A stretch of 64,000 nucleotides of DNA, taken from sequence record OR525698.1. One strand, 5' to 3'. The position numbers were made by a program, and so were the translations under genes. This DNA comes from Escherichia phage vB-Eco-KMB43. This document shows, piece by piece, positions 15,943 through 39,208 of the stretch (its first letter is position 1; the number at the start of each line of letters is the position of its first letter). The notes below the pieces were generated by a model, which was not told the DNA's origin, ran no database searches, and saw only the letters and a list, made by a program, of their open reading frames with translations.

Positions 15943-16763
15943 TTAGTCACCTCACCGAAAATTGTAAATTGTCTACGATTCTCATCGCCGAAAGATTCTA
16001 CTACGTCGTTTACCTTGACGCAAGTCCCGCGCGGTAAAATTACTTCACATTCGCAAGGATTCCATGCAATTGACCCAACAACAAAACCTTTATGATCTTT
16101 TACGTCAATTACCCACGATACATTACAAGAATGTTGCATCTTTCCGGTCATCGATTCATATCGATTCTCACAATAAAGGCTAGTGCTGTTTGATAGCCAT
16201 CCTCCAAAGATGATCGGTGTCATGCTGGTCGATACAAAGTTTTTAAAGGTAAACTCCTTATCTTCAATGATGCGCTCTATTGTCTGAATGTCAAGATGTT
16301 GACCGCGATAAAGAGTACCGTTTAACTTTTCGGTTTTATCCATGACACAATCCATCAAATCGACAATCTCTGATATCTCGTCGGTCATGTCTTCTTCCCC
16401 TAAGAGAGCACCATTTACCCATTCGTATTGTTCAGATACATAATCACAGATTGCATTATATTCTGCTGGGGTTATGTTGTTATGTTTGTAATGTTTGAAT
16501 ACATTATCTCCAAAGTCTTCGGAATGTACTTCATACATCACATTAATGATTTTCTTGACAAATCCATAATCTTGTGTCTCGCGCTCAAGGAAGCGGATAA
16601 CCTTCACATAATCATCAAAGTTAATCTGATCGCTGATCATCTCAGTGATCATGTAACCATTAATCCCCTCAATGTCATATGTTTCAATATAATTGTCCAT
16701 ACGTTCCATCATTGATTCGCGTGATTCTTCCGAAAGACGAAAATCCTGTAATTTCTTGAACAT
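15939..16763 (-). CDS. Alt-like ADP-ribosyltransferase paralogue (274 aa)
   Basis: C-terminal region YRGQ...FVSTSMTPIIFGG...ECEVILPRG parallels the Alt catalytic R-S-E region (YR..., FVSTSL, EILLPRG) seen in the adjacent alt gene. Confidence 0.6.
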   Translation of the reverse strand: MFKKLQDFRLSEESRESMMERMDNYIETYDIEGINGYMITEMISDQINFDDYVKVIRFLERETQDYGFVKKIINVMYEVHSEDFGDNVFKHYKHNNITPAEYNAICDYVSEQYEWVNGALLGEEDMTDEISEIVDLMDCVMDKTEKLNGTLYRGQHLDIQTIERIIEDKEFTFKNFVSTSMTPIIFGGWLSNSTSLYCENRYESMTGKMQHSCNVSWVIDVKDHKGFVVGSIAWNPCECEVILPRGTCVKVNDVVESFGDENRRQFTIFGEVTK

Positions 16764-16842
16764 TTTAAACCTCCCATATAACAGAAAACGGGGCTAGTAT
16801 AAAACTAGTCCCCGTTTGAGTCAACCATTATTTCTTAAAAAA

Positions 16843-18894
16843 TTACATTTTAAATTTATCTGGCATTGCGTCTACAGATACCAGATCAGCGATAAGCTGA
16901 CGTAGAGTTGCCTTATCTGCTTTCTTACGTTCGGTTTTAGCTTCGCTAATGAAGCTGGAGAAAGACAGGTCAGAAGCAGGTTTAATAACACCTTCACGGA
17001 TGAATGCATCACCGTCTGCGATCATCTCGCCAGATTCTTGTAATGCTGCCAGTTCATTTTTGTTCATAATATGTGCCTCAATGTAATAAGTTTCTTGTGA
17101 ATCCGTCGATGCCGTAGCACGAGTTACCGTATCAAAGGATAACACAACACCGCGAGGAAGTAAAATCTCGCATTCTTTGTAAGCAAATGCTTTGTTACCT
17201 ACTGGCAACACAGGGATGTTTTCCGCGCCAGCAATGGAGAAAGCAACATTAGCGCCACCTTCACCGCGAGAGCCAGCCATAGAATCAACACCAGCAACGG
17301 CACTAGCCACGTTTGCATTCCAGCCGCCAAAAATGTTAGGTGCAAGGGAAGTGCTCACATAGTTTTTAAAGTAAAACGCTTTTTGCTTACGTGCAGTTTC
17401 CCACATTTGAGTCCGGAAGTCCATACCACGATACAGAATAGTACCCGGATCAAGTTTAACGCCATAGTTGGAGAAGGCATTATCCAGTGCATCGCACATC
17501 TTGACCAATTCTTCTGGATCTGCGATGCCTTCAAACTCTTCCAGCTTACGATCAGTTAGGAAGTTGTTCATATTGATGTATGCTGCATCGGCATATTCGC
17601 TCAATACAAAACCTTCCGCGCCCGGCAGATCAAGATCAATATCTGCCATCATTTCACCCATGTTGCTAGCAATTGCTTCAAACATACCGGAAGCAACATT
17701 ACGTAGGGCATCGGTTTTAATCTGGGTGATATGACTACGCAGCATTTCAGCTTTTACATCTGCTGGCATAGACTGGTCTACTCGATCCATTGCCAGGGCG
17801 GTGATCTTGTTTTCGAATACTTCCTCGCTCATGATTTCTTTTAAGCGTTTGATTGATGCTGCGATAACTTCCGCAGACAACGGATCATATTGATCCTGAA
17901 CTTTTACCAGTTCGCTTACTGCGTATTTTGCATCTGCTTCGCTTTCAAAAATAGTACGCATGAAACCATAGCGAGTGATAATATCACTTGTCCAGTCATT
18001 CAGAGAACGGGCGGTTGAACGTTCTAATGCTTGACGATCAATCAGAGTATTAAACTGTTTCTTAGGTTCGGCTTCGGTGATATCTTCTTCCGGTTTAAGA
18101 TTAATTTTTTCTGGATGATTCACATAGTCGCTGTTATAGGTCGCTTGAGTTTTCAGCATTTCTTCTTTAGTCAAACGAGATTTAGCCGCTACGCGTTGTT
18201 CTGCTTCCGCGTTTCGTTCTTCTTCTGACACAAGACTAGCCGCATACGCCTCATCTTTAGTCAGAGATTCACCAGTAGCCTTAGATACCCAGCGATCACC
18301 TAAATCACTTTCTACTTTAGTGAACAAGGATTCATCAAGTTTAATCCCTTTAATCTTATCAATCGCCATCCCGCGACGCTTGACAACAACTAAAGCGATC
18401 TTTTTGCTGGTCATTACTTCCTGCTGGAATACTTCAAACTTCGGTGTACGACGCACCAAACGCTCTATAACGCGCTTAACCAGTTCGGTCTTACCTTTCA
18501 TGCGGGATACGTTAAAACGGAACATAACAGCGTCTAATTGCGCTTTACGGGCTGTTTCCATAACCACATCAAAAGCACTTGCCATAACTGCAATCGGGTT
18601 ATCTCCTAGACCATTTTTAAGCTGTACAATACGACCGCTTTTGTTCATTTCGCACAGTACAACATGTGCGGTCTTGTCACCCATACGAATGATTTTAGGT
18701 GTTTTGTTGGTGAAGTTACAAAGACGGACAATCACATCTTTATCGCGTGTCTGTACTGCAAAAAGCTGTTTAGGATTCTGCTTAGGCTTTAAGCACTGTA
18801 CCGGAGCAATACTGCCAAAGTTTTCTTCCTCTTCCGTCAACAGCCATTTCTCGAAAGATTCAATCATTAGATCGTCGATTTCTAAGTTAAACAT
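16843..18894 (-). CDS. alt: Alt ADP-ribosyltransferase (head-packaged)
   Basis: 683 aa (T4 Alt is 682 aa); LFTKVESDLGD and C-terminal FYFKNYVSTSLAPNIFGG...ECEILLPRG match T4 Alt. Confidence 0.85.
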   Translation of the reverse strand: MFNLEIDDLMIESFEKWLLTEEEENFGSIAPVQCLKPKQNPKQLFAVQTRDKDVIVRLCNFTNKTPKIIRMGDKTAHVVLCEMNKSGRIVQLKNGLGDNPIAVMASAFDVVMETARKAQLDAVMFRFNVSRMKGKTELVKRVIERLVRRTPKFEVFQQEVMTSKKIALVVVKRRGMAIDKIKGIKLDESLFTKVESDLGDRWVSKATGESLTKDEAYAASLVSEEERNAEAEQRVAAKSRLTKEEMLKTQATYNSDYVNHPEKINLKPEEDITEAEPKKQFNTLIDRQALERSTARSLNDWTSDIITRYGFMRTIFESEADAKYAVSELVKVQDQYDPLSAEVIAASIKRLKEIMSEEVFENKITALAMDRVDQSMPADVKAEMLRSHITQIKTDALRNVASGMFEAIASNMGEMMADIDLDLPGAEGFVLSEYADAAYINMNNFLTDRKLEEFEGIADPEELVKMCDALDNAFSNYGVKLDPGTILYRGMDFRTQMWETARKQKAFYFKNYVSTSLAPNIFGGWNANVASAVAGVDSMAGSRGEGGANVAFSIAGAENIPVLPVGNKAFAYKECEILLPRGVVLSFDTVTRATASTDSQETYYIEAHIMNKNELAALQESGEMIADGDAFIREGVIKPASDLSFSSFISEAKTERKKADKATLRQLIADLVSVDAMPDKFKM

Positions 18895-18961: not shown

Positions 18962-19174
18962 TTATAATGCACCATCGAGCAATTGCTCTAAGGTGTATCC
19001 TGAATAGTCTTTTTCAATCAGGATATATTTTCCTACTCGTTTAATACAACCGCGCATTTCAACGTATTCTGCGTAGTTGATGGTGCGAGTTGTTCCATCT
19101 TCCAGTAATGCAGTACCGATTTCGTTAATGCGGTCATAAGTTACGTCGGTAATGATGATTTCGATGTTAGCCAT
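18962..19174 (-). CDS. hypothetical protein (70 aa)
   Basis: ORF with AGGAG RBS downstream of a promoter cassette. Confidence 0.55.
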   Translation of the reverse strand: MANIEIIITDVTYDRINEIGTALLEDGTTRTINYAEYVEMRGCIKRVGKYILIEKDYSGYTLEQLLDGAL

Positions 19175-19204
19175 TTGATACTCCTTAGTAGTTCGTTTCG
19201 GTAT

Positions 19205-19245
19205 GGGTGTATTATGATATACACCCTCTGTTATGTCAACAACTT
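19205..19245 (-). promoter_or_regulatory. early promoter cassette (sigma70-like, PeSL-type)
   Basis: Reverse complement reads TTGACA, 17-nt spacer, CATAAT, then conserved leader ACACCCATACCGAAACG. Confidence 0.6.
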
Positions 19246-19425
19246 TTAGAACATTTTTGAAATCAATTCTGCTTTGATTTCGCAGAGAACATCTAAAGAT
19301 TTCTCGTCACCTGCTTTTGCTGCTTCTGCTTGCATTTTTGAAATGGCTTCAATGTCGGTGCAATTATAAGCCGCTTGAACTTTAGCGATTGCGATGATTG
19401 CCGATTCGATGGTTAAGTGTTTCAT
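19246..19425 (-). CDS. small hypothetical protein (59 aa)
   Basis: Manual translation MKHLTIESAIIAIAKVQAAYN...; preceded by promoter cassette and GGGGAATCAAAC RBS. Confidence 0.45.
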   Translation of the reverse strand: MKHLTIESAIIAIAKVQAAYNCTDIEAISKMQAEAAKAGDEKSLDVLCEIKAELISKMF

Positions 19426-19454
19426 GTTTGATTCCCCTTTCGTTTCGGTATGTG

Positions 19455-19490
19455 TGTATTATAGGGGATCACCGATCCCCCTGTCAACAA
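19455..19490 (-). promoter_or_regulatory. early promoter cassette with palindromic spacer
   Basis: Reverse complement TTGACA-GGGGGATCGGTGATCCCC-TATAAT; spacer is a perfect GGGGATC/GATCCCC palindrome. Confidence 0.65.
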
Positions 19491-19498
19491 CTTTTTAG

Positions 19499-20050
19499 TT
19501 ATTTTTTTAATTGCTCATCTTGCAATAGGGCAATCACATGCTGGCGATGTTCTTCCGATTGAGGCACACCGAAAAAGTTTGTTTTGTAGAAATACTCTAA
19601 TCGGTCTTCTCGTGTGCTCTCTTCCATCATGATCGCGGGTAGTCCGAGATTTCGGAAACGTCGCTTTTCTGCTGGCGTAAAATCACTGTAATACAACATA
19701 GAATCATCATTACCAGCAATGCTAAACTCATCCTTCATAAAGGAGAATATTGCGTTTAAACGCTGTTTACCGTCCACGATTTCGATCTCATAGCGAGAGC
19801 CATCATCAATCTTAGCCATTGCGATAGCACCGACCGGAAAATCATTAATCAGGTTTTCGATAAACATACGTTTGTTTTCGGTGTCCCATACCAAAGGACG
19901 CTGATAATCTGGGTTCATGTTGATATAGCCATCTTCTAACCATGCTTCGTAAACAGAGATGACAAAGTTTTTAGTATTGGTATAGTAACGGCGTTTAGGC
20001 GTTAAACGGTTCATGTTATAGTCTCCTGAATGGATCATCACGTAAATCAA
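19499..20050 (-). CDS. DUF262 (ParB-like nuclease domain) protein
   Basis: 183 aa; DYQRPLVW...FPVGAIAMAK...EIVDGKQRLNAI matches the DUF262 DGQQR signature region. Confidence 0.55.
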   Translation of the reverse strand: MIYVMIHSGDYNMNRLTPKRRYYTNTKNFVISVYEAWLEDGYINMNPDYQRPLVWDTENKRMFIENLINDFPVGAIAMAKIDDGSRYEIEIVDGKQRLNAIFSFMKDEFSIAGNDDSMLYYSDFTPAEKRRFRNLGLPAIMMEESTREDRLEYFYKTNFFGVPQSEEHRQHVIALLQDEQLKK

Positions 20051-20348
20051 TATCTTTTAAGAACTCATCCCATGAATGGCGGATATTGTTCTTAATTCTC
20101 CAGATAAGCGCAGGGATTGAACGCTCTCCCATCTGGAAGTATGGATCATATGATCCGTATGCCCAATATGCTACTACAATTCCACAATCAGCGCAATAGT
20201 ATTCTATTTCACTTGCTGGCGACCAAAGTCCATCAATATGATCGGTGATCTTGCTTTCGATGTTATGGCTATGACAATCAGGGCAACGGATGCAATGACC
20301 TTGTTTATCGTAATTTGACGTTAGCGAATACTTAAACAATCTCATCAT
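20016..20348 (-). CDS. small zinc-ribbon-like protein (110 aa)
   Basis: CxxC...CxxC arrangement (CIRCPDC, CADCG); start overlaps the upstream stop. Confidence 0.5.
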   Translation of the reverse strand: MMRLFKYSLTSNYDKQGHCIRCPDCHSHNIESKITDHIDGLWSPASEIEYYCADCGIVVAYWAYGSYDPYFQMGERSIPALIWRIKNNIRHSWDEFLKDIDLRDDPFRRL

Positions 20349-21061
20349 AGATCCTTATTTGCTTCAAATACTGCCTTTGCGAATCCTCGCGGGGTAAGTG
20401 ACCTGATAGTCTTTGTTTTCGTTCCTTTCCCGCCTAGCTTAGAATGCTGTTTACTGTACCCTTTATTAATCTGCAAAGGTTTCTTTTCTGGCATTATAAA
20501 GCCTTGTCCGGTCCATAAGCAAGTCTTTTTCGGGTACATATCACGGGCGGCGATATACTCAGGAAAAGTAGGATGTTTATCATCTTCCGGCAAATAACCG
20601 CCATATTCCCACGGATGGAACATATAATCAGGCTTACGCCACATGCTAGAGATAACGCTTACAGGATTCTCTATCATGTAGGGAACTCCTAGCCATTCAC
20701 CCAAATAAGCGGTTATTTTAGCTGCCCGTACATCATGAACTTGAATCAATGGTCCTTGCTCTCGTTTCTTTCGTTCAAAGTGTGCAGCGCCACTAACAGC
20801 TAAATTGGTGCACGGTGGGAATGCAAAGATAATATCCGGTTTCCCCCATTCAAGGTCCATTGCTCTTTCCAGCCAGTTCAAATCAATCCAGGTGTTTACA
20901 TAGGTAATGTTTGGATGTTCAAATCTGGTATTATACTTTTTGTATGTACCGTGGTCGGCGTCATCCGCATTAAAGCAGACTACCTTATGACCTGCTTTAG
21001 CCCATTCTAGCCCCATTATCCCCGATCCGTCAAAGTTACAGAATATTAATTTTTGTTTCAT
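20345..21061 (-). CDS. C5-cytosine methyltransferase-like protein (divergent, 238 aa)
   Basis: FCNFDGSG (motif I-like), IIFAFPPCTNLAVSG (motif IV-like Pro-Cys), MIENP (ENV-like); no clear motif VIII or X, so family assignment is tentative. Confidence 0.45.
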   Translation of the reverse strand: MKQKLIFCNFDGSGIMGLEWAKAGHKVVCFNADDADHGTYKKYNTRFEHPNITYVNTWIDLNWLERAMDLEWGKPDIIFAFPPCTNLAVSGAAHFERKKREQGPLIQVHDVRAAKITAYLGEWLGVPYMIENPVSVISSMWRKPDYMFHPWEYGGYLPEDDKHPTFPEYIAARDMYPKKTCLWTGQGFIMPEKKPLQINKGYSKQHSKLGGKGTKTKTIRSLTPRGFAKAVFEANKDL

Positions 21062-21303
21062 ATACGCCCCTTTAATCCAACACAGATTTTAGAAGGTTCT
21101 TTGCCGTGCCACATTAAGTAAAGTCCATTAATGCGGCCTTGTTTTGTATATGATTCTTTTCTGATCTTCTTATAGTGTCGTGCTTCCTCAGCCGATTGTT
21201 TAGAATACCAATCATAAAGGAAGAGGCACAAAGGCCAACCATTAGCGGCCTTAATGCAGTTATTAAGAAATTCCTTATTGCGTTTAATTAATTTTCTTTT
21301 CAC
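21058..21303 (-). CDS. hypothetical protein (81 aa)
   Basis: Intact ORF, start overlapping the upstream stop. Confidence 0.5.
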   Translation of the reverse strand: MKRKLIKRNKEFLNNCIKAANGWPLCLFLYDWYSKQSAEEARHYKKIRKESYTKQGRINGLYLMWHGKEPSKICVGLKGRI

Positions 21304-21551
21304 GCTGCCCCCATTGGTTTGATAGTAACAGAATCTAAAAGACCTTTGTTAGCCAGTTCGCGGCAAGTTTTCAGATCCGCAACTTCCCAGCCAGCCGCAA
21401 TCAGGTTATCGATGAGGCTGTTAGCAACTTCTTCGCTCATGAAAGAGCACTGTTTGCCGATGGTGTAGCGTACACGCTGTAATTTCAGTTTACGGAAGCC
21501 TTTAACGTTCAGGTCTTTAGCGATTTTCTTTGCGGTTTCGATGTTAGCCAT
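21300..21551 (-). CDS. hypothetical protein (83 aa)
   Basis: Intact ORF with GGAGAATCAAAC RBS downstream of a promoter cassette. Confidence 0.55.
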   Translation of the reverse strand: MANIETAKKIAKDLNVKGFRKLKLQRVRYTIGKQCSFMSEEVANSLIDNLIAAGWEVADLKTCRELANKGLLDSVTIKPMGAA

Positions 21552-21587
21552 TGTTTGATTCTCCTAAGTGGTATCTAGTCTTGATGG

Positions 21588-21622
21588 TTGTATTGTAGGG
21601 GAGTTATCCTCCCCTGTCAACA
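21588..21622 (-). promoter_or_regulatory. early promoter cassette with palindromic spacer
   Basis: Reverse complement TTGACA-GGGGAGGATAACTCCCC-TACAAT. Confidence 0.6.
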
Positions 21623-21634
21623 CTTTTTATAAAA

Positions 21635-21802
21635 TTATTTGTTAATTTCCGGTGCGTTGCTAGGATAGTAACCTTCTTTAACTCCGAGGTATTTCGCAAC
21701 CATCCCTACAATCTTCTGTGCTACTACAATGTCAAATTTCAGATAATCTTCGCCGTGGGTTTCAATGATATATGCTTCACATGCTGCTTTAGTCTCGAAC
21801 AT
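21635..21802 (-). CDS. small hypothetical protein, paralogue A (55 aa)
   Basis: MFETKAACEAYIIETHGEDYLKFDIVVAQKIVGMVAKYLGVKEGYYPSNAPEINK; near-identical second copy at 25256-25423. Confidence 0.55.
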   Translation of the reverse strand: MFETKAACEAYIIETHGEDYLKFDIVVAQKIVGMVAKYLGVKEGYYPSNAPEINK

Positions 21803-21832
21803 TTTGATTCTCCTATTTCGTTTCGGTATGTG

Positions 21833-21868
21833 TGTATTATAGGGGATCTCCCGATCCCCGTCAACAAC
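21833..21868 (-). promoter_or_regulatory. early promoter cassette with palindromic spacer
   Basis: Reverse complement TTGACG-GGGATCGGGAGATCCCC-TATAAT then conserved leader and GGAGAATCAAAATG. Confidence 0.65.
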
Positions 21869-21880
21869 TTTTTTTTAAAA

Positions 21881-22162
21881 TTATTCGTGATTAGTTTCGA
21901 TGTTGTGCATTTTGCACCAGTTCAGCCAATCACCCAGATCCTGATAGTTAATGCTTTTATCTGCTGCCATCGTTTTTGTCTTGATACCCATATGTGCGTT
22001 ATGAGTAAGCATTTTTACAGTGAACTCAATTTTATCACCTTTAGCTTTAACATCAACCAGTTTGGTCCACTGGCTACCAGCGCCGCGAATGTTCATACCA
22101 ACGATGTTTCCGATGTATGCTTCTTTGTTTTTCAGGATTTCGGTTGCTTTGATGAATTTCAT
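21881..22162 (-). CDS. hypothetical protein (93 aa)
   Basis: Intact ORF with GGAGAATCAAAAATG initiation context. Confidence 0.55.
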   Translation of the reverse strand: MKFIKATEILKNKEAYIGNIVGMNIRGAGSQWTKLVDVKAKGDKIEFTVKMLTHNAHMGIKTKTMAADKSINYQDLGDWLNWCKMHNIETNHE

Positions 22163-22192
22163 TTTTGATTCTCCAGTTCGTTTCGGTATGTG

Positions 22193-22226
22193 TGTATTAT
22201 GCTATTTTCTTACTTTGGTGTCAACA
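22193..22226 (-). promoter_or_regulatory. early promoter cassette
   Basis: Reverse complement TTGACA-N17-CATAAT with conserved leader. Confidence 0.6.
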
Positions 22227-22233
22227 ACTTTTT

Positions 22234-22503
22234 TTAGATATTTTCAGAAATAAATTTTAAAACTTGACGTAAATGTTTCTCATCTTTGATAGTCGCCGGA
22301 AGTTCTTCTTTTACTTCCTGTGCAAGATAGATATTTCCGTTCCAAGTGAAAGATCCGTCTTCGTTTACGCGATAGCTGAACATCCACTCGCAATCATTTT
22401 CGATTTCATATACACACAGAAGAGTGTAATCTTCAAAGCTATTGATTTCAAGGTCGAAGCCGTGACGTTTTGCAAAGTTGGTAGTGGTTTTAGTCAGTGC
22501 CAT
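22234..22503 (-). CDS. hypothetical protein (89 aa)
   Basis: Intact ORF with GGAGAATCAAACAATG initiation context. Confidence 0.55.
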   Translation of the reverse strand: MALTKTTTNFAKRHGFDLEINSFEDYTLLCVYEIENDCEWMFSYRVNEDGSFTWNGNIYLAQEVKEELPATIKDEKHLRQVLKFISENI

Positions 22504-22540
22504 TGTTTGATTCTCCTAAGTGGTATCTCGTCTTGATGGG

Positions 22541-22575
22541 TGTATTATGCTATAGGCGTGATCTGGTGTCAATGC
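22541..22575 (-). promoter_or_regulatory. early promoter cassette
   Basis: Reverse complement TTGACA-N17-CATAAT. Confidence 0.55.
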
Positions 22576-22820
22576 TTTTTTTAATTTTATGCAATAAAAA
22601 GACGACACTAAGGTCGGCACATTTTAAAAATTCTTGCCATATATGCAAGCCTCATAATCTAGAGGATGACCGCCAATCCTACCCGGCTTAATATTCCAAC
22701 CGCATCGATATTTGCTGACCATGCTAACAGTTTCGGTTCTTAGAGCATTTTCTTTGCAAATCATACCCCATAAATTCTTTTCTATAAGGACAGTCCGCTT
22801 TGCAAGTTGGCGGTTCTACG

Positions 22821-23012
22821 TCATTTAGCGGGTCGGAAGCAGTTGGCTTTATTATCAATTCTTTGTTTGCAATAATCATAAGCACATCCCATTGAAGACA
22901 ATTTAACATCTTCGCAATAAGTGTTGAATCCGTCAAACACGGTCACTTCGTATTTGACTCCATCAGCGATAGCTTTTACTTTATACCATCCATGCTTGTA
23001 TAAAATCTTCAT
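22821..23012 (-). CDS. small Cys-rich hypothetical protein (63 aa)
   Basis: ORF with promoter cassette and RBS upstream; overlapped in another frame by ORF 22724-22936, which may hold a second small gene from an internal ATG. Confidence 0.5.
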   Translation of the reverse strand: MKILYKHGWYKVKAIADGVKYEVTVFDGFNTYCEDVKLSSMGCAYDYCKQRIDNKANCFRPAK

Positions 23013-23041
23013 CTTTATTTCCTCAATCTCGTTTCGATGGG

Positions 23042-23077
23042 TGTATTATGCTATAGGCTAGACCAGGTTGTCAACAA
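23042..23077 (-). promoter_or_regulatory. early promoter cassette
   Basis: Reverse complement TTGACA-N18-CATAAT. Confidence 0.55.
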
Positions 23078-23104
23078 CTTTTTTAATTTTTTGGAAATAA
23101 AAAA

Positions 23105-23122
23105 GCCGACGCTAAGGTCGGC
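23105..23122 (-). terminator. candidate terminator downstream of ORF 23131-23439
   Basis: GCCGAC-GCTAAG-GTCGGC hairpin flanked by A-runs on the plus strand. Confidence 0.6.
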
Positions 23123-23130
23123 TAATAAAA

Positions 23131-23439
23131 TCATTTAGACAAATAATCATTCTGTGCAATCCGGTCGGCGTATGCTGGTGTTACGTCAATCGCCAACACT
23201 TTAACGCGTGCTTTCTTGCGACCTGGGTTTTCTCGTAACCAGTGCTCATGACCGTGCACATTTTTATATTTTGATGCGGTTTCGAAGGTACGGATCGGAC
23301 CTGGATAATCTGCGTAAAGGATCTCTAGGTCTTCGGTGATGTAAAAATATACATCATAATTACTGTTCTCTAGTTTAAGCAGAGAATTGCGAAATTGTGG
23401 TAAATTCTCGCGGGTAAATTCAACTACAAGATTTTTCAT
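23131..23439 (-). CDS. member 1 of a tandem paralogue family (HxHW...V.P..AD motif)
   Basis: Start taken at ATG 23437-23439 with GAGGA RBS (track ORF extends further upstream in frame); ...YFYITEDLEILYADY...HGHEHWL...KVLAIDVTPAYAD. Confidence 0.55.
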   Translation of the reverse strand: MKNLVVEFTRENLPQFRNSLLKLENSNYDVYFYITEDLEILYADYPGPIRTFETASKYKNVHGHEHWLRENPGRKKARVKVLAIDVTPAYADRIAQNDYLSK

Positions 23440-23488
23440 AGTGATATCCTCATTCAGATAGATTAAAAGGGGCTTAACGCCCCGTATA

Positions 23489-23776
23489 TTAAAACAGTCC
23501 TTCCTGTACACCGTAGTAGAGTTCGTCACTGATAATTTCATTAATGCGACGGTGTGCATATTCCTGATTTGCGAAGTTGTCAGCAAGTTCTACTTTAGTT
23601 TCGCCGTCATGAGTCCATTTAGTGATAACTTTACCATCTGCAAATTTGAAGTTGAACTCTTTAGCTACTGCATCGCGTACCAGACGTGCGAACTTGTTGT
23701 TACGGATTGCATTATCGGTTTCGTGTGCAGCGTGAGCAAATTTGTTAACTTTCAGAGTGATAGTAATGTATGCCAT
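23489..23776 (-). CDS. hypothetical protein (95 aa), paralogous to ORF 26658-26969
   Basis: Shares ...RLVRDAVAKEFNFK... with ...IREVRKALAKEFNTK... of ORF 26658-26969. Confidence 0.55.
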   Translation of the reverse strand: MAYITITLKVNKFAHAAHETDNAIRNNKFARLVRDAVAKEFNFKFADGKVITKWTHDGETKVELADNFANQEYAHRRINEIISDELYYGVQEGLF

Positions 23777-23819
23777 AATTTGATTCTCCTAGTTAGAAAG
23801 TGTATCTCGTTTCGATGGG

Positions 23820-23853
23820 TGTATTATGCTATACACCCGATCCATTGTCAACG
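23820..23853 (-). promoter_or_regulatory. early promoter cassette with palindrome over the -10 region
   Basis: Reverse complement TTGACA-N17-CATAAT; GGGTGTA...TACACCC inverted repeat. Confidence 0.55.
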
Positions 23854-24183
23854 CCTTTTTATAAAATAATTTTCGATATCTTTATGATGTTTTTCTCGTG
23901 CTTGGTCTGCCTCGGCTGGCGATACGTTGGAAGCGATAATCTTCACTACTGTTGCACCTTTTTCGGTGTCCGACACCCAATGATTATGGAAACCGCTATT
24001 ATTAAACACTTGATAAGAAAATGATTTAATGCTAGGGAAATTATATGTGTAATAGCGTACCTTTAATTCTGAATCTATGTATAGATAGATCACCGCACCT
24101 AGATAGACCGTCTCACTCGTTCCATCAACTAACAGTAGAGTATTTCGCAATTCTTCTAAATTGTCTTTTGTAAGAAAAATCAT
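23848..24183 (-). CDS. member 2 of the tandem paralogue family
   Basis: ...YLYIDSELKVRYYTYNF...GFHNHWVSDTEKGATVVKIIASNVSPAEADQAREKHH. Confidence 0.6.
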   Translation of the reverse strand: MIFLTKDNLEELRNTLLLVDGTSETVYLGAVIYLYIDSELKVRYYTYNFPSIKSFSYQVFNNSGFHNHWVSDTEKGATVVKIIASNVSPAEADQAREKHHKDIENYFIKRR

Positions 24184-24197
24184 AGTATAATCCTCAA

Positions 24198-24533
24198 TTA
24201 AACCAAATTAACTTTGGTGTTGTGGTGTTTTTCTCGTGCTTCGTCCGCTTCTTCCGGTGTCACGTTACGAGCGACTACAATAACACTTGCTGCCTCTCCG
24301 TGATGAGAGATCTCTACCCAATGGTTATGATTTGTGAATCCGTGTTTTATTGCGTAAGCGAACGGCTTGGACGTCCAGTAGTTACTATAATATCGTACAT
24401 TTAGATCGCTATCAATGTACAAATATGTGCTGTCGTTTACATTGCCACTAACAACAAAAACAAGACAATTGCGAAGATCTGGCAATATTTTGTCTGTCAA
24501 TTTTATAATGTGACTGTTCATAATTAACACCAC
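24198..24533 (-). CDS. member 3 of the tandem paralogue family
   Basis: ...YLYIDSDLNVRYYSNYW...HNHNHWVEISHHGEAASVIVVARNVTPEEADEAREKHH. Confidence 0.6.
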   Translation of the reverse strand: MVLIMNSHIIKLTDKILPDLRNCLVFVVSGNVNDSTYLYIDSDLNVRYYSNYWTSKPFAYAIKHGFTNHNHWVEISHHGEAASVIVVARNVTPEEADEAREKHHNTKVNLV

Positions 24534-24733
24534 TCAAGAGTTTTTGAAAACACATCTATCCATTGTTGAGTATATGCAGTTTCTTTCCACGAGACAATAC
24601 CAGTAGAATAATGATTCTTGTTTCCAGAAAAGGACGGGCATTTTGATGCATCTTCCATCATCTTTTCGGCGAACTCTGGTTCGTATACTCGCAAGATCTG
24701 TTGATATGCTTTGTAGTCTTTAAATTTGCTCAT
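24524..24733 (-). CDS. hypothetical protein (69 aa)
   Basis: Intact ORF between paralogue-family members. Confidence 0.45.
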   Translation of the reverse strand: MSKFKDYKAYQQILRVYEPEFAEKMMEDASKCPSFSGNKNHYSTGIVSWKETAYTQQWIDVFSKTLEWC

Positions 24734-24998
24734 AATCGTTAACTACCTTATCAGCTTCTTTTATTGTTTTTACATCAACTGCGATAACCCGTAAAGGTTC
24801 GTCGTGGTTCCACCAATGATCGTGAATATCAGCTTGTGATTTATCACCAAAGGAATCACGAATATCATTTTTACATTTATAGCTAATGTGACCGTCATAG
24901 TCAACATAAAGGTAATTATCGAAAATCGGCGTTTTTAAGATCATGCCGAAAAATCTTTCTTTGTGTGTCTTATCCAGTGTTGCAGTAATTCGCATCAT
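24720..24998 (-). CDS. member 4 of the tandem paralogue family
   Basis: ...YLYVDYDGHISYKC...DIHDHWWNHDEPLRVIAVDVKTIKEADK. Confidence 0.55.
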   Translation of the reverse strand: MMRITATLDKTHKERFFGMILKTPIFDNYLYVDYDGHISYKCKNDIRDSFGDKSQADIHDHWWNHDEPLRVIAVDVKTIKEADKVVNDYEQI

Positions 24999-25010
24999 AA
25001 TATATTCCTC

Positions 25011-25190
25011 TTAGAAAGGGATGGTCATTTCTTGAGCTTGTACATTCTCGTTAGGATTAAACTTCATCCAACCGATATTGTCTACCAGCATATGCACATT
25101 TTTATCATATCCTACGTGAGTAGTCAATACTAAATGTGCTTTACCTTCAACGATGATTTCCATGTACTTCTGAACTTCGATAGCTTTCAT
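25011..25190 (-). CDS. small hypothetical protein (59 aa)
   Basis: Manual translation MKAIEVQKYMEIIVEGKAHLVL...; GGAGAATCAAAAATG initiation context. Confidence 0.45.
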   Translation of the reverse strand: MKAIEVQKYMEIIVEGKAHLVLTTHVGYDKNVHMLVDNIGWMKFNPNENVQAQEMTIPF

Positions 25191-25214
25191 TTTTGATTCT
25201 CCGTTTGTTGTCTT

Positions 25215-25255
25215 GATGGGAGTATATTACTACTCCCTTTAATCATTGTCAACTA
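25215..25255 (-). promoter_or_regulatory. early promoter cassette, class with palindrome spanning the -10
   Basis: Reverse complement TTGACA-N17-TAATAT within GGGAGTAGTAATATACTCCC palindrome. Confidence 0.55.
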
Positions 25256-25423
25256 TTATTTGTTAATTTCCGGTGCGTTGCTCGGATAGTAACCTTCTTT
25301 AACACCCAGATATTTTGCGACCATTCCGGTGATCTTCTGTGCTACTACAATGTCAAATTTCAGGTAGTCTTCACCGTGGTTTGCTACAATGTATGCTTCG
25401 CATTCTGCTTTAGTCTGGAACAT
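25256..25423 (-). CDS. small hypothetical protein, paralogue B (55 aa)
   Basis: MFQTKAECEAYIVANHGEDYLKFDIVVAQKITGMVAKYLGVKEGYYPSNAPEINK; about 90 percent identical to ORF 21635-21802. Confidence 0.55.
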   Translation of the reverse strand: MFQTKAECEAYIVANHGEDYLKFDIVVAQKITGMVAKYLGVKEGYYPSNAPEINK

Positions 25424-25454
25424 TTTTGATTCTCCTATATCTCGTTGGTATGTG

Positions 25455-25488
25455 TGTAGTATAGGGGATCACCGATCCCCTGTCAACA
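25455..25488 (-). promoter_or_regulatory. early promoter cassette with palindromic spacer
   Basis: Reverse complement TTGACA-GGGGATCGGTGATCCCC-TATACT. Confidence 0.6.
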
Positions 25489-25493
25489 ACTTT

Positions 25494-25844
25494 TTATTCT
25501 TCATCTTCATCTTTATCTTGATATGCGTACGTCATAAATTTGTCTGCTACTTTGTCCGCGTTTTCAGGTTCTACGTCTGACGCTAGGACAACAGCTAGTT
25601 CTGTTTTGTCGTTTCCATCATACCAATGATTATGAGTGTCGTTTTCTTCGATATAAAACGAATCATTTGGAGTTGTGCGACAATATACGTCTAAATTCCC
25701 ATCGATATAAAAGATCCAATCCGAATACAAAATGATTGTTTTAGCAAGATTTTTATTGCCTTCAACGAAAGGTTCGGCTACAAACAAATTAGTATGTTCC
25801 ATAGTATTTTTCCTCAAAATTATACAGCTTCGTAAACTTCCCAA
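25494..25844 (-). CDS. member 5 of the tandem paralogue family
   Basis: ...IFYIDGNLDVYCR...DTHNHWYDGNDKTELAVVLASDVEPENADK. Confidence 0.55.
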   Translation of the reverse strand: MGSLRSCIILRKNTMEHTNLFVAEPFVEGNKNLAKTIILYSDWIFYIDGNLDVYCRTTPNDSFYIEENDTHNHWYDGNDKTELAVVLASDVEPENADKVADKFMTYAYQDKDEDEE

Positions 25845-26011
25845 TGTCCAACACCAGCACGCTTAACGAAAAGGTTTTCTTTTATGTTATTCATAAACGT
25901 CTGGATGGATTTAATTCGTTTGGAAGGTTTCCAGTCTTCGTTGGTATTGCGTCGATACATCATAACATTACCAGACCGCTTATATTCAGCAACCATTTTA
26001 AGACCACACAT
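25820..26011 (-). CDS. hypothetical protein (63 aa)
   Basis: Intact ORF; start overlaps the upstream stop. Confidence 0.45.
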   Translation of the reverse strand: MCGLKMVAEYKRSGNVMMYRRNTNEDWKPSKRIKSIQTFMNNIKENLFVKRAGVGHWEVYEAV

Positions 26012-26067
26012 AATATTATCCTCAATTTGTGGGAGAGTATTACCCTCCCGATTATTGTTATACTACA

Positions 26068-26388
26068 TTACGCAAAATGGCGTGTCAATGCTTCTTTTGC
26101 TGTTCCGCTAAGATTCTCTATCTCTCCTGGCATAACATCAACCGCCAGAACTTCTACAACATCCTCTGATCCTAACCAGTGAGTATGACCTTTGTAGAAC
26201 TTGATAATCAGACTACCTTCCTCATCCCATTTAACGCTATCGCTAGCCCACCACACATCACCGTCGATAAAGTTGATGTAAAGCACACTACGCCACATTG
26301 AATTAATTACTTTCAATACTGCGCCTTTCATATCTTCCACGGTGTGGTCTTCCATTTTGAAGACCTCGCCTACCTGAACTTTTGCCAT
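26068..26388 (-). CDS. member 6 of the tandem paralogue family (most divergent)
   Basis: ...YINFIDGDVWWASD...KGHTHWLGSEDVVEVLAVDVMPGEIE. Confidence 0.5.
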   Translation of the reverse strand: MAKVQVGEVFKMEDHTVEDMKGAVLKVINSMWRSVLYINFIDGDVWWASDSVKWDEEGSLIIKFYKGHTHWLGSEDVVEVLAVDVMPGEIENLSGTAKEALTRHFA

Positions 26389-26405
26389 TTAGTCACCTCT
26401 CTTTA

Positions 26406-26585
26406 TTACATAACAATTACGCCAGCCGTTGAAAGTTGATGTTTCAACTGAGCATTTTCTGCTACTGTCAAATCAATGATTTCTTGTGACGCTGCAATCA
26501 TATAGCCATTGGTGATATTGTTTTGCATCAGTTCAATGGTTTCTTCGTTGTAGCGGATTTTAGCGATGATTTCGTTGAAGTTCAT
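26406..26585 (-). CDS. small hypothetical protein (59 aa)
   Basis: Manual translation MNFNEIIAKIRYNEETIELMQNN...; GGAGAATCAATTATG context. Confidence 0.45.
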   Translation of the reverse strand: MNFNEIIAKIRYNEETIELMQNNITNGYMIAASQEIIDLTVAENAQLKHQLSTAGVIVM

Positions 26586-26617
26586 AATTGATTCTCCTAG
26601 TTCGTTTCGGTATGTGT

Positions 26618-26651
26618 GTATTATAGGGGAGTTTAACCTCCCCTGTCAACA
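26618..26651 (-). promoter_or_regulatory. early promoter cassette with palindromic spacer
   Basis: Reverse complement TTGACA-GGGGAGGTTAAACTCCCC-TATAAT. Confidence 0.65.
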
Positions 26652-26657
26652 ACTTTT

Positions 26658-26969
26658 TTAAAGTTTTTCCATGATAACGGTCATAATTACATCTTCTGCG
26701 CGAGCGGTCAGATTATCAGCGTCAGCATGTGGGCGGTTGGTTGTTACAGAGATAACACCGTTGCGCACTGGTTTGATATTGATATCAAGATGATCCGCGA
26801 AACGTTCGCCAGTTACAGAATGAATTTTGGTGTTAAATTCTTTTGCCAGTGCCTTGCGAACTTCACGAATCAGGATAGCGTTTTTCAGTTGGTTCTCCGC
26901 GCTCATGGTCTTCTGAGTGTTCATGGTTCCGTCGAAGTCAATCATTGGCAGCGTTACGATGTATTTCAT
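26658..26969 (-). CDS. hypothetical protein (103 aa), paralogous to ORF 23489-23776
   Basis: Shared ...VRKALAKEFNTK... block; GGAGAATCAAAAATG context. Confidence 0.55.
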   Translation of the reverse strand: MKYIVTLPMIDFDGTMNTQKTMSAENQLKNAILIREVRKALAKEFNTKIHSVTGERFADHLDINIKPVRNGVISVTTNRPHADADNLTARAEDVIMTVIMEKL

Positions 26970-27011
26970 TTTTGATTCTCCGTTTAAGAAAGTGTGTTTC
27001 GTTTTGATGTG

Positions 27012-27045
27012 TGTAGTATAGGGGATACGTGATCCCCTGTCAACA
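27012..27045 (-). promoter_or_regulatory. early promoter cassette with palindromic spacer
   Basis: Reverse complement TTGACA-GGGGATCACGTATCCCC-TATACT. Confidence 0.6.
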
Positions 27046-27056
27046 ACTTTTTTGAA

Positions 27057-27401
27057 TTATTTTTTCATGAGCTTAATGGCTTCTTCCATAGCCAGCACAT
27101 TTCGATAGTTAGGGTATCGTGTTAGATCGTCATACATTCGCTTAAGGGTGGAAACTTCCTCAAACTCTGGGTTTTCTAGATACAGTTGAACAAATTGTTT
27201 CTCTACCATCTCGGCTTTTAGCTTGTCTGCTTGTTCCTGTTCATATGATTTCGTTGGACCCAACACCAACAAAATGATAAAGGTGATCAACGGGCTAATG
27301 ATCAATGATAGGATAACATAACCAATAACGCTACGGTTTAAACGGCTTGCGTACATGCCTACAAGGAAAACAAAAAGGATATAGATAAACAGAAAGAACA
27401 T
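27057..27401 (-). CDS. small membrane protein (114 aa, two predicted TM segments)
   Basis: Hydrophobic stretches FFLFIYILFVFLVGMYA and VILSLIISPLITFIILLVLG. Confidence 0.55.
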   Translation of the reverse strand: MFFLFIYILFVFLVGMYASRLNRSVIGYVILSLIISPLITFIILLVLGPTKSYEQEQADKLKAEMVEKQFVQLYLENPEFEEVSTLKRMYDDLTRYPNYRNVLAMEEAIKLMKK

Positions 27402-34789: not shown

Positions 34790-35188
34790 TTAACTTTCCA
34801 GAATATCGCGAGCTTCGTTACGCTCCTTGATGATTTTCAGGACAAATTCCAGTTTTTCTTTGTTCAGTGTTCCGTTTTCCATTGCTTCTTTGACGGTAAA
34901 CACTCCGCCACCTTGCCCGTATACAGTGACAGTGATTTCACCTAACATCGTGGTATGAAAACCGCCAATTTTCGGTGATTCGAAAGAAACAATTACCTCG
35001 CGAACAGTATTACCGTCGTTGATTTCTGAGAGGGTAATGTCGTTTTTGTAGGCGGTTGCTTTAACCATACGGATCAACATAGTCTGATCTGGTGAGATGG
35101 TCATTTTGTCCATTGCATGTTGCAATGCAGCGTAACCGAAAACTTTAACGAAGTCCAGAACATCTTTGCGAGTTTGAAATTTAATCAT
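34790..35188 (-). CDS. hypothetical protein (132 aa)
   Basis: Intact ORF downstream of a promoter cassette. Confidence 0.55.
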   Translation of the reverse strand: MIKFQTRKDVLDFVKVFGYAALQHAMDKMTISPDQTMLIRMVKATAYKNDITLSEINDGNTVREVIVSFESPKIGGFHTTMLGEITVTVYGQGGGVFTVKEAMENGTLNKEKLEFVLKIIKERNEARDILES

Positions 35189-35212
35189 CTTGATACTCCT
35201 TAGTTGTTTTGG

Positions 35213-35252
35213 TATGGGAGTATCTTACTACTCCCGTGATATGCTGTCAACT
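35213..35252 (-). promoter_or_regulatory. early promoter cassette, class with palindrome spanning the -10
   Basis: Reverse complement TTGACA-N17-TAAGAT within GGGAGTAGTAAGATACTCCC palindrome. Confidence 0.55.
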
Positions 35253-35258
35253 GCTTTT

Positions 35259-35408
35259 TTATGCAACCGCAAACATCAACATTTGAACATTCTTGGCTGT
35301 CTGGCTTTCAAAGTTCTGACATTCTTTGATAATGTCCTCTACTTTCTCGCCGGAGATCTCCGCGTAAGTTTCGATTGCCATTTTCAGTACCGCGTCAAAG
35401 TTGTTCAT
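35259..35408 (-). CDS. small hypothetical protein (49 aa)
   Basis: Manual translation MNNFDAVLKMAIETYAEISGEKVED...; GGAGAATCAAATG context. Confidence 0.4.
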   Translation of the reverse strand: MNNFDAVLKMAIETYAEISGEKVEDIIKECQNFESQTAKNVQMLMFAVA

Positions 35409-35437
35409 TTGATTCTCCTTAAAGTTTATTTCGTTTC

Positions 35438-35478
35438 GATGGGGGTATATTAATACCCCCGTTATTCAGTGTCAACTA
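35438..35478 (-). promoter_or_regulatory. early promoter cassette
   Basis: GGGGGTATATTAATACCCCC palindrome; shares an identical 27-nt stretch CGTTATTCAGTGTCAACTACTTTTTAA with the cassette at 35720-35758. Confidence 0.55.
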
Positions 35479-35694
35479 CTTTTTAATGACAATTTCGAAT
35501 TTTGCTACCTTGCGTCCTCGTTTATTGAAAGCAACCCACGGACGGTTTTCAATATAGAACAATTCTTCGCCAATAATGAATACTGGCTGATTGTAAAGGC
35601 GACCCATCAGGTCACGCTGGCGAATGGTAGTAGATTCGTATACTTCGCCTACTACAAAGTGTTTGCTGATAGAGTCGGTGCAAGTAAATTTCAT
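35476..35694 (-). CDS. hypothetical protein (72 aa)
   Basis: Intact ORF flanked by promoter cassettes. Confidence 0.5.
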   Translation of the reverse strand: MKFTCTDSISKHFVVGEVYESTTIRQRDLMGRLYNQPVFIIGEELFYIENRPWVAFNKRGRKVAKFEIVIKK

Positions 35695-35719
35695 TTTGAT
35701 TCTCCTTTGTTTCGTTTCG

Positions 35720-35758
35720 ATGGGAGTATCTTACTACCCCCGTTATTCAGTGTCAACT
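35720..35758 (-). promoter_or_regulatory. early promoter cassette
   Basis: Near-duplicate of the cassette at 35438-35478. Confidence 0.55.
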
Positions 35759-35763
35759 ACTTT

Positions 35764-39202: not shown

Positions 39203-39208
39203 GTTATT

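Follow-up and report, generated by a model that had tools for sequence, protein, structure and literature searches.

What is the short, promoter-bearing sequence that recurs in front of small genes in a stretch of Escherichia phage vB-Eco-KMB43, and does it serve only the expression of these genes or also their exchange between phages? An earlier note on this stretch (sequence record OR525698.1; 64,000 nt, in the following called the window) had described more than 20 copies of an early-promoter cassette with an embedded palindrome, spread over five regions. Based on our analysis, we assign these cassettes, with a probability of roughly 90%, to the promoter-early stem-loops (PeSLs), i.e., composite promoter/stem-loop elements of RB49-type T4-like phages, a feature that is already known, in the same genus and at the same locus. 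The assignment draws on the anatomy of the cassettes, their identity with PeSLs tested elsewhere, the stability and partial covariation of their hairpins, and the cassette-bounded indels and chimeric cassettes observed in related phages.

Using a profile hidden Markov model (HMM), we found 23 copies of one repeated cassette of about 80–100 nt in the window; they occupy only the minus strand, and every one of them stands immediately in front of an open reading frame (ORF). The expected number was thus reached, and all five regions named beforehand hold copies, 12 of the 23 lying within 19.2–27.1 kb. Copies are named after the plus-strand coordinate of the first T of their TTGAC (e.g., c19239). 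A blind repeat search gave overlapping direct-repeat families of 43–79 nt at the same places, and the HMM built from the 23 copies returned exactly those 23 in the window, on the minus strand only (E 1e-7 to 1e-17). When each copy was searched with a model trained on the other 22, all 23 were recovered, 21 of them at E <= 2.4e-8, with the weakest scores for c36035 (E 2e-5) and the truncated c39200 (E 1e-3); in 20 random order-1 windows (1.28 Mb) used as a control, the best E value was no better than 0.2. The family was defined by the profile HMM since the leader is too variable: a search for CATACCGAAACGAAC with up to three mismatches gave only six true copies. Likewise, the exact leader did not hold as a general feature, since the full CATACCGAAACGAAC occurs in only these six copies and the others carry CATCGAAACGA, CATCAAGAC, or CATACCAA variants. 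Rfam showed no family match anywhere in the window. Counted over the window and the homologous loci of 17 relatives, there are 209 cassette copies, all in gene orientation and at gene starts. Overall, the repeat family is confirmed as real and lies far beyond chance.

A scan for near-consensus sigma-70 promoters (at least 11 of 12 hexamer positions) pointed to the same places, with 28 matches on the minus strand of the window and one on the plus strand, where about 1.5 were expected. All such matches in 18.8–27.5 kb are cassettes, and 11 of the 12 cassettes of this region reach the threshold. The scan also bore out the proposed TTGAC(A/G) box with a spacer of 17–18 nt. That nearly every small ORF has a cassette was overstated: it applies to 12 (13 with a divergent copy at 26088) of about 27 genes in 19–27.4 kb. 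The minus strand has about 13 other near-consensus sigma-70 promoters that are devoid of the extended cassette features; they lie in 45.2–48.2 kb, 31.5–32.5 kb, and 1.3–3.5 kb (e.g., 45224, 45996, 46544, 47044, and 47586), some of them apparently inside coding sequence.

Read on the coding strand, the cassette consists of an A-rich tract, AAAAAGTTG, TTGAC(A/G), the 17–18 nt spacer, a TATAAT-like -10 box, ACNCNCAT, a short A-rich leader, and a ribosome-binding site (RBS). All 23 copies have the -35 box and spacer in this form, followed by a -10 hexamer of TAnnnT or CATAAT. Alignment on the -35 box showed AAAAAGTTG conserved just upstream of the hexamer, and the 20 nt upstream of it are 78% A+T (52% A), compared with 59.5% A+T in the window; the stop codon of the upstream gene is visible inside this A-tract. 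Alignment on the -10 box revealed ACNCNCAT after the hexamer with 1.3–2.0 bits per position. Transcription would start at the A of a nearly invariant CAT, 7 nt past the -10 box, and the leaders predicted from this are about 28 nt long, about 50% A, and essentially unstructured (mean minimum free energy of -0.8 kcal/mol). In every copy, an RBS and an ATG follow 50–75 nt past the -35 box and open an ORF of 49–283 aa. The RBS GGAGAATCAAA is present in 15 copies (11 exact and four with one mismatch; 1.9 expected at no more than one mismatch), and it invariably serves the first ORF behind a cassette. The remaining genes of 19–27.4 kb are organized in operons of two to five genes behind one cassette and use an RBS of the type TGAGGAnnAnAnTATG instead. 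At homologous sites, the GenBank record of phage GEC-3S annotates promoters.

A G+C-rich hairpin was identified in 21 of the 23 copies. In class A (eight copies), the stem fills the spacer between the two boxes and reads GGGGATC/GATCCCC, GGGGAG/CTCCCC, or GCGGGGA/TCCCCGC, while in class B (nine copies) it spans the -10 box as GGGAGTA/TACTCCC, GGGGGTAT/ATACCCCC, or GGGTGTAT/ATACACCC. Both classes had been foreseen; a third one had been missed, namely class C (c22572, c23074, c36035, and c44074), in which a terminator-type hairpin with a T-run stands upstream of the -35 box. A perfect stem of -8 kcal/mol or lower is present in 18 of the 23 copies, as opposed to 2% of shuffled sequences, and three further copies have imperfect upstream hairpins of the terminator type. 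The z-scores obtained with ViennaRNA ranged from -1.6 to -5.1 in the stem-bearing copies and from +0.2 to -1.2 in the stem-less ones. In all three positions, the hairpin ends upstream of the predicted start site of its own cassette and could therefore be transcribed only by read-through from the upstream gene. The canonical arrangement of an intrinsic terminator, i.e., a hairpin directly followed by a U-run, was found only in the upstream hairpins of class C. As a candidate in its own right, the reading of class A and B stems as canonical intrinsic terminators was rejected because the U-tract is absent.

Comparison of orthologous and paralogous stems showed that pairing is kept by compensatory change at three pairs. 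In class B, two adjacent pairs change from U-A to G-C and from G-C to A-U, with a G-U intermediate, and a third changes from A-U to G-C with two G-U intermediates. Covariation was counted for two registers of class B only; class A stems were enumerated, as variable loops and spacers prevent an unbiased alignment in fixed columns. Where a credible stem contains an interior pair that is not Watson-Crick, this is a sense-strand G-U (four independent cases) and never A-C (one-sided p ~0.06), a bias that would be suggestive of a sense-strand RNA hairpin.

How do these cassettes relate to described elements? The window belongs to a Krischvirus and is, by megablast, 94–99% identical to phages FL37, RB49, JSE, phi1, and LF73P4, but no single record covered the 8.2-kb region as a whole, so that the region is mosaic. 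Its part from 19 to 27 kb is the homolog of RB49 ORF185-211, the hyperplastic region (HPR) for which PeSLs were first described and tested, and further cassette clusters lie in 35–36 kb (RB49 ORF225-228) and 62.6–64 kb (ORF262-266). Most ORFs downstream of cassettes are without a Pfam match. PeSLs were defined in RB49 and phi1 (Arbiol, Comeau, Kutateladze, Adamia, Krisch 2010, Genome Biol Evol 2:140; PMC2839356), where about 51–52 of them occur per genome, mainly in hyperplastic regions (PMC2839356). The elements PeSL193/192, 206/205, and 211/210 of RB49 were tested in that study: PeSL206/205 is a very strong promoter (~13,000 Miller units), the stem-loop of PeSL211/210 cut expression of a downstream lacZ as strongly as rrnB T1, and recombination between PeSLs yields mini-circles, as shown in RB49 and phi1 for ORFan192 and ORFan210 (PMC2839356).

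Two of the tested elements have their counterparts here. Cassette c27043 is identical to PeSL211/210 over 100 of 100 nt, while the core of c25486, from promoter to ATG, differs from PeSL206/205 at only two positions, in and just past the -10 box, with a slightly different A-tract upstream. In addition, c21864 is nearly identical to RB49 PeSL192/191 and phi1 193/191, and its site has the phi1-type topology with a single cassette by which the loss of ORFan192 is illustrated (PMC2839356 Fig. 3). All sequence features by which PeSLs are recognized were found, namely sigma-70 boxes, an A-rich tract with a stop codon, a stem-loop, a Shine-Dalgarno sequence with a start codon, location in a hyperplastic region, and homology. 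The stem positions correspond as well to the five alternatives known for PeSLs: eight in the spacer, nine at the -10 box, four in the upstream AT-rich region, and one downstream of the -10 box in a divergent copy. The resemblance to the PeSLs of T4-type phages that had been proposed in the note was therefore upheld, by sequence identity as well as by region and anatomy. Promoter strength, terminator-like activity, and mini-circle formation, as reported for the identical or near-identical RB49 sequences (PMC2839356), would by analogy apply to the copies of the window.

The 23 copies (1–12 in the HPR, 13–23 outside of it) and two probable divergent members, which the family HMM did not recover, are as follows.

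(1) c19239: 19172..19259, minus strand; class B, upstream of a 70-aa ORF (18962..19174, RB49 ORF185 homolog); HMM hit; TTGACA-17-CATAAT, stem GGGTGTAT/ATACACCC at 19226..19205 (-10.6 kcal/mol, z -2.5), RBS GGAGTATCAAATG.
(2) c19487: 19423..19507, minus strand; class A, upstream of a 59-aa ORF (19246..19425, ORF186 homolog) that some relatives lost via cassette-to-cassette recombination; 12/12 promoter match with an 18-nt spacer, stem GGGGGATC/GATCCCCT at 19481..19463 (z -3.1).
(3) c21620: 21549..21640, minus strand; class A, upstream of ORF 21300..21551; stem AGGGGAG/CTCCCCT at 21615..21597 (z -4.5).
(4) c21864: 21800..21884, minus strand; class A, upstream of a 55-aa ORF (21635..21802, ORF191 homolog).
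(5) c22224: 22160..22244, minus strand; without stem-loop (hairpin search empty, z +0.2), upstream of a 93-aa ORF (21881..22162, ORF193 homolog); HMM hit; TTGACA-17-CATAAT.
(6) c22572: 22501..22620, minus strand; class C with an imperfect hairpin and T-run, upstream of ORF 22234..22503 (ORF194 homolog).
(7) c23074: 23010..23123, minus strand; class C, upstream of a 63-aa ORF (22821..23012); HMM hit; canonical terminator-like hairpin at 23123..23104 followed by TTTTTTATT, found by the terminator and promoter scans.
(8) c23851: 23774..23871, minus strand; class B, upstream of a 95-aa ORF (23489..23776, ORF198 homolog); stem GGGTGTAT/ATACACCC at 23838..23817 (z -2.8); orthologs in relatives have GGGGATAT/ATATCCCC and the G-U intermediate GGGGGTAT.
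(9) c25252: 25188..25272, minus strand; class B, upstream of a 59-aa ORF (25011..25190, ORF204 homolog); stem GGGAGTA/TACTCCC at 25237..25218 (z -4.1), RBS GGAGAATCAAAAATG.
(10) c25486: 25421..25506, minus strand; class A, upstream of a 55-aa ORF (25256..25423, ORF205 homolog); stem at 25481..25463.
(11) c26649: 26583..26669, minus strand; class A, upstream of a 59-aa ORF (26406..26585, ORF209 homolog); 12/12 promoter match, stem AGGGGAG/CTCCCCT at 26644..26625.
(12) c27043: 26967..27063, minus strand; class A, upstream of a 103-aa ORF (26658..26969, ORF210 homolog); stem at 27038..27020.
(13) c35250: 35186..35270, minus strand; class B, upstream of a 132-aa ORF (34790..35188); stem at 35235..35216 (z -2.9).
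(14) c35475: 35406..35495, minus strand; class B, upstream of a 49-aa ORF (35259..35408); stem GGGGGTAT/ATACCCCC at 35460..35441 (z -3.3), with the compensatory change from A-U to G-C relative to other class B copies.
(15) c35756: 35692..35776, minus strand; class B with a sense-strand G-U pair, upstream of a 72-aa ORF (35476..35694); stem GGGGGTA/TACTCCC at 35741..35722.
(16) c36035: 35980..36075, minus strand; class C, upstream of a 72-aa ORF (35764..35982); upstream hairpin AAAGTCGCC/GGCGACTTT at 36073..36050, tail with 6/8 T.
(17) c38302: 38240..38322, minus strand; class A, upstream of a 55-aa ORF (38075..38242); stem GCGGGGA/TCCCCGC at 38297..38280 (z -5.1).
(18) c39200: 39148..39220, minus strand; class A, upstream of a 283-aa C5-cytosine DNA methylase ORF (38299..39150).
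(19) c44074: 44013..44125, minus strand; class C, upstream of a 109-aa ORF (43686..44015); hairpin GCCTTCC-TTCG-GGGAGGC followed by TTTTTATT.
(20) c62662: 62597..62682, minus strand; class B, upstream of a 252-aa ORF (61841..62599) for an LprI-domain protein.
(21) c62945: 62885..62965, minus strand; class B, upstream of a 70-aa ORF (62675..62887).
(22) c63258: 63193..63278, minus strand; degenerate class B with a mutated 5' arm of the stem (z -1.2), upstream of an 80-aa ORF (62953..63195).
(23) c63964: 63902..63984, minus strand; class B with a 10-bp stem, AATGGGAGTA/TACTCCCATT at 63952..63927 (-14 kcal/mol), upstream of a 90-aa ORF (63632..63904); RBS GGAGAATCAAAGATG.
Probable divergent member: 26009..26100, minus strand; TTGACA-17-TAGTAT with a stem-loop GGGAG...CTCCC downstream of the -10 box, a subclass also described for PeSLs (PMC2839356); upstream of ORF 25820..26011.
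Probable divergent member: 16761..16845, minus strand; TTGACT-17-TATACT with an imperfect stem GGGGACTAG/CTAGCCCC across the -10 box, read directly.

Five of the eight class A stems (e.g., 19463-19481, 21842-21859, and 25463-25481) hold two GATC (Dam) sites in the spacer of the promoter. Over the full window, too, this tetranucleotide is more frequent than base composition predicts (358 occurrences, about 231 expected).

Do the cassettes take part in gene exchange? For this question, the homologous region was taken from 17 relatives among the GenBank Krischvirus records (an IMG/VR scan with the ORF190 protein gave only two loci), and BLAST alignments were chained against positions 17.0–29.5 kb of the window. 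Within the HPR, we identified 12 distinct indel or replacement events, five of which run from cassette to cassette and three of which have a cassette at one edge. The five are the loss of ORF186, a 2.3-kb deletion in MIZ4, the loss of ORF191, the inserts at c21864, and a 407-nt segment (22618-23026). In each of them, one genome has a single cassette that can be aligned with the two cassettes of the other genome alike, with an overlap of 24–98 nt; over all events, junction overlaps at cassettes ranged from 21 to 98 nt, and it is the length of this junction homology that sets the cassette events apart. Exactly at the site of c21864, phages RB49, JSE, and G2494 carry different inserts of 545, 367, and 529 nt, respectively, the extra ORF of RB49 being ORFan192. 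The 407-nt segment, which is absent from most relatives, has c22572 as its right edge and c23074 as its left edge, with a junction overlap of 95–98 nt at c22572. A replacement breakpoint lies at 23892, next to c23851, and both c26649 and c27043 form the left edges of deletions (26675-27422 in three relatives and 27064-27422 in six, respectively).

Outside the HPR, all four indels between the window and RB49 touch a cassette, i.e., the methylase insert, the p240 endonuclease gene, ORF263, and segment 62966-63470. The first is an 855-nt insert (38315-39171) between nrdA and the ORF233 homolog that encodes a C5-cytosine DNA methylase of 283 aa (Pfam PF00145, E 4e-19). It is flanked by a duplicated cassette, c38302 as the downstream and c39200 as the upstream copy (43 nt, 95% identical), where RB49 has one. 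As a circle with one cassette would integrate in just this way, the arrangement is the expected footprint of such an event. Among the matches listed (40 of 82), only LF73P4, Delraymugoa, and Aragogtheria have the insert, and the other 37 as well as RB49 are without it. Conversely, the RB49 gene for the ORF240/p240 endonuclease (about 1.43–1.46 kb; 42055-43512 of the RB49 sequence compared), located between gene 32 and ORF239 with two flanking cassettes, is absent from the window, and c44074 is a chimera of these two cassettes with an overlap of 74 nt. At the site of c62662, RB49 has about 200 extra nt (ORF263), and c62945 is the left edge of the window-specific segment 62966-63470.

Chimeric cassettes were also seen across the 209 copies, where one and the same ORF start has different stem variants in front of it depending on the phage, and once a different class. 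For instance, different stem variants stand in front of the relatives' copies of the ORF behind c26649. Differing stem and promoter halves before the same ORF indicate crossovers within cassettes. In phage G2248, the cassette upstream of the ORF210 homolog shows a partial tandem duplication (...CATCAAAACGAA|GGGGATCACGTATCCCCTATACTACACAC...), which is consistent with unequal exchange within cassettes. Furthermore, two 55-aa paralogs on the minus strand (21635-21802 and 25256-25423, the ORF191 and ORF205 homologs; 89% aa and 87% nt identity) each lie between two cassettes, and the pair is an intragenomic duplication of a cassette-plus-ORF unit.

Taken together, the following course of events may be proposed. 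The near-consensus sigma-70 promoter would be used by the unmodified host RNA polymerase immediately after infection, and the A-rich leader of about 28 nt, ending in a strong RBS and start codon, would lead to expression of the cassette gene. In read-through RNA, the hairpin may terminate or attenuate transcription, possibly stabilizing the 3' end as well, and would thereby insulate each small early gene or operon. As the units of about 80–100 nt are repeated many times in one orientation, they would serve as substrates for the general homologous recombination of the phage, and exchange between copies would delete, insert, or swap the intervening ORFs, leaving one chimeric cassette.

Several points weigh against this reading of the cassettes as PeSLs. 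Two copies, c22224 and the degenerate c63258, are stem-less. Only 0–3 U occur in the 8 nt behind the stems of classes A and B, and a scan for hairpins with a T-run called none of them as a terminator; the published effect of such stems on lacZ could thus reflect something other than termination. The covariation is limited to three variable pairs and exceeds the shuffle controls only moderately (3–5/500 for one subclass and 43/500 for the other), so that it may be taken as supportive rather than decisive. Start sites, early timing in this phage, and the mechanism of termination are predictions from the sequence. The window also contains apparent assembly errors outside the cassettes, namely two 55-nt duplications and a baseplate rearrangement; the cassette analysis is unaffected by them. 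Finally, four of the 12 HPR events have no cassette at either end, their junction overlaps being 17 nt or less, and HPR junctions were used as breakpoints in nine of 12 cases with and seven of 14 cases without a cassette, a difference that is not significant.

These last counts are what would be seen if the cassettes were ordinary strong early promoters, alike through descent, selection, and gene conversion, at which recombination is incidental and shuffling no more frequent than at other junctions. We nevertheless consider this explanation unlikely. Cassette-to-cassette events show the long overlaps and produce chimeric cassettes; each of the four indels outside the HPR touches a cassette, although cassettes are scarce there; the methylase insert is bordered by a duplicated cassette, as from the integration of a one-cassette circle; and mini-circles with cassette junctions were demonstrated in RB49 and phi1 (PMC2839356). 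The proposal of cassette-mediated exchange was hence supported with respect to cassette-bounded indels, long junction homology, and chimeras, but not with respect to an excess over the other junctions of the HPR.

The palindromes had been seen either as operator sites or as RNA hairpins. Bound by a protein, they could be operators for a shut-off repressor, or targets of a dedicated recombination protein that confers site-specific mobility and forms the mini-circles. Their position inside the promoter, where an operator would act, and the GGGG...CCCC core that recurs in most class A stems would suit this, and a specific DNA-binding protein that targets the stem was also a speculation of Arbiol et al. 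(PMC2839356). However, the stems differ in sequence (GGGGATC, GGGGAG, GCGGGGA, GGGAGTA, GGGTGTAT, GGGGATAT), in loop length (3–6 nt), and in position (spacer, -10 box, upstream). Compensatory changes with sense-strand G-U intermediates fit selection on structure better, the crossovers are spread over the A-tract, the stretch from the -10 box to the leader, and the promoter core, as with general homologous recombination, and a recombinase is known in none of these genomes. A protein site is therefore improbable. Because the stems vary in sequence and position yet stay paired through compensatory and G-U changes, the RNA hairpin is favored over the operator.

A hairpin at the level of DNA, extruded as a cruciform or formed in single strands, might also tune the promoter with supercoiling or replication without any read-through RNA. 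The palindromes do lie within the promoter core, the paired Dam sites of class A would be in keeping with this, and sequencing stalls at the stems unless betaine is added (PMC2839356). To extrude as cruciforms, however, stems of 7–8 bp with loops of 3–6 nt are short. The pairs other than Watson-Crick read G-U only on the sense strand (four vs. none) and would be A-C mismatches on the other strand, which points to a single-stranded molecule of sense polarity, and the hairpins of class C, located outside the promoter, are terminators of the ordinary kind. This explanation is therefore very improbable. Miniature transposable elements, similar to miniature inverted-repeat transposable elements or repetitive extragenic palindromes, come to mind because a short element that contains a palindrome is scattered in many copies, but this reading was rejected as practically untenable, since all 209 copies share one orientation at gene starts, each copy is delimited by the stop codon of the gene upstream and the start codon of the gene downstream, and there are no terminal inverted repeats, target-site duplications, or transposase.

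Returning to the cassettes as PeSLs, their RBS suggested a possible extension. In T4-type phages, the target consensus of RegB/S1 is GGAGRAYARAA in single-stranded RNA (Durand et al. 2006, PMC1702504), and RB49 encodes a divergent yet active RegB (PMC3014915). The cassette RBS GGAGAAUCAAA, which is conserved to an unusual degree, matches this consensus at 10 of 11 positions and sits in the early-gene leader predicted to be A-rich and unstructured. It is present in 15 cassettes (e.g., 21803-21813, 25425-25435, and 26971-26981, minus strand) and belongs to cassette-proximal ORFs only, whereas operon-internal ORFs use TGAGGAnnAnAnUAUG. However, GGAGAAUCAAA departs from RegB/S1 sites in having C instead of the strongly preferred A at position 8, and a T4 RNA that carries C both there and at position 10 is a poor RegB substrate. 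A link between RegB and the cassette RBS is not discussed in the PeSL papers. We tentatively suggest, while holding it rather doubtful, that the cassette might be a complete on/off module, in which the RBS would be a RegB/S1 target that shuts off PeSL-driven genes and the hairpin, as sense-strand RNA, would define or protect the 3' end of the upstream message. If so, any gene captured between two cassettes would inherit early-on, early-off kinetics.

Further observations concern the neighboring genes. The operon behind c21620 (19499-21551, minus strand) comprises ORF190, ORF189.1, a DNA methyltransferase, a Zn-ribbon protein, and a 172-aa protein with a nuclease-type GmrSD_N / DUF262 domain (PF03235, E 4e-20); the methyltransferase is annotated as such in relatives, and a Pfam scan here gave no match for it. 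Between 23131 and 25802 (minus strand), ORFs 23131..23439, 23848..24183, 24198..24521, and 25494..25802 encode tandem paralogs of about 100 aa (BLASTP E 1e-4 to 1e-23), to which 24720..24998 and 26068..26388 probably belong in view of a shared HW...V(L/I)A(V/I)DV motif. The family is without a Pfam match, and the replacement of 23892-24519 among phages swaps its members. On the plus strand, the homolog of the long tail-fiber gene 34 (49584-50640) contains periodic repeats of 42–57 nt with GxxGxxEIATQxE-like units at spacings of 108–372 nt.

As to the apparent assembly errors, gene 32 for the essential single-stranded DNA-binding protein (minus strand, ATG 45158) has a 55-nt tandem duplication near its 5' end (44999-45108, one mismatch between copies), which causes a frameshift and cuts the protein short after about 52 aa; the sequence is single-copy in 58 of 58 related phage records. 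A second 55-nt tandem duplication (7271-7380, copies 100% identical) alters the C-terminus at the 3' end of a uvsW-like helicase ORF (5831..7330). Its unit length equals that in gene 32, where the duplication is probably an artifact of assembly, 55 being a common k-mer size of de Bruijn assemblies. In the gp28/gp29 baseplate region, 542 nt are missing at about 11568 in comparison with RB49, phi1, and GEC-3S, and a 386-nt piece of the missing segment, 99% identical, lies inside gene 54 (14563-14948). Since such a cut-and-paste would disrupt essential baseplate genes, a misassembly is likely.

Overall, the comparison of 17 genomes supports recombination via cassette homology, with microhomology events at ordinary gene junctions being about as frequent within the HPR, and the published picture of PeSLs is unchanged by our analysis. 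PeSLs are a documented way for large lytic phages to shuffle accessory genes with their regulation undisturbed. Recognizing them explains the mosaic small-ORF regions here and flags recent acquisitions, such as the C5-cytosine methylase, which is probably anti-restriction.

In comparison with the PeSLs of RB49 and phi1, the cassettes of the window share genus, region, architecture, alternative stem positions, and the association with ORFan indels, and they differ in nothing essential; the window has its own combination of ORFs, e.g., the 407-nt segment and the C5-methylase insert at 38.3–39.2 kb. The PeSL-like motifs of PST/T4 and nt-1/KVP40 (Comeau, Arbiol, Krisch 2014; PMC4122927) and the elements at T-even internal-protein loci are likewise promoter and stem-loop units at variable genes and indel junctions of hyperplastic regions, but in these analogs, early promoters of the T4 type come with weaker, AT-rich stems, whereas here an E. 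coli sigma-70 consensus is combined with G+C-rich stems. Lambdoid morons (Hendrix et al. 2000) similarly are single accessory genes with their own promoter and terminator, and in the linker exchange of Botstein and Campbell, conserved linkers are the proposed exchange points; in the present case, it is the repeated cassette itself that holds the junction homology. Integron gene cassettes (attC/attI) also are small promoter-dependent ORF units with circular intermediates and repeated structured sites, but in the window there is neither an integrase nor an attC-type site, each cassette has its own promoter, and recombination is apparently general and homologous.

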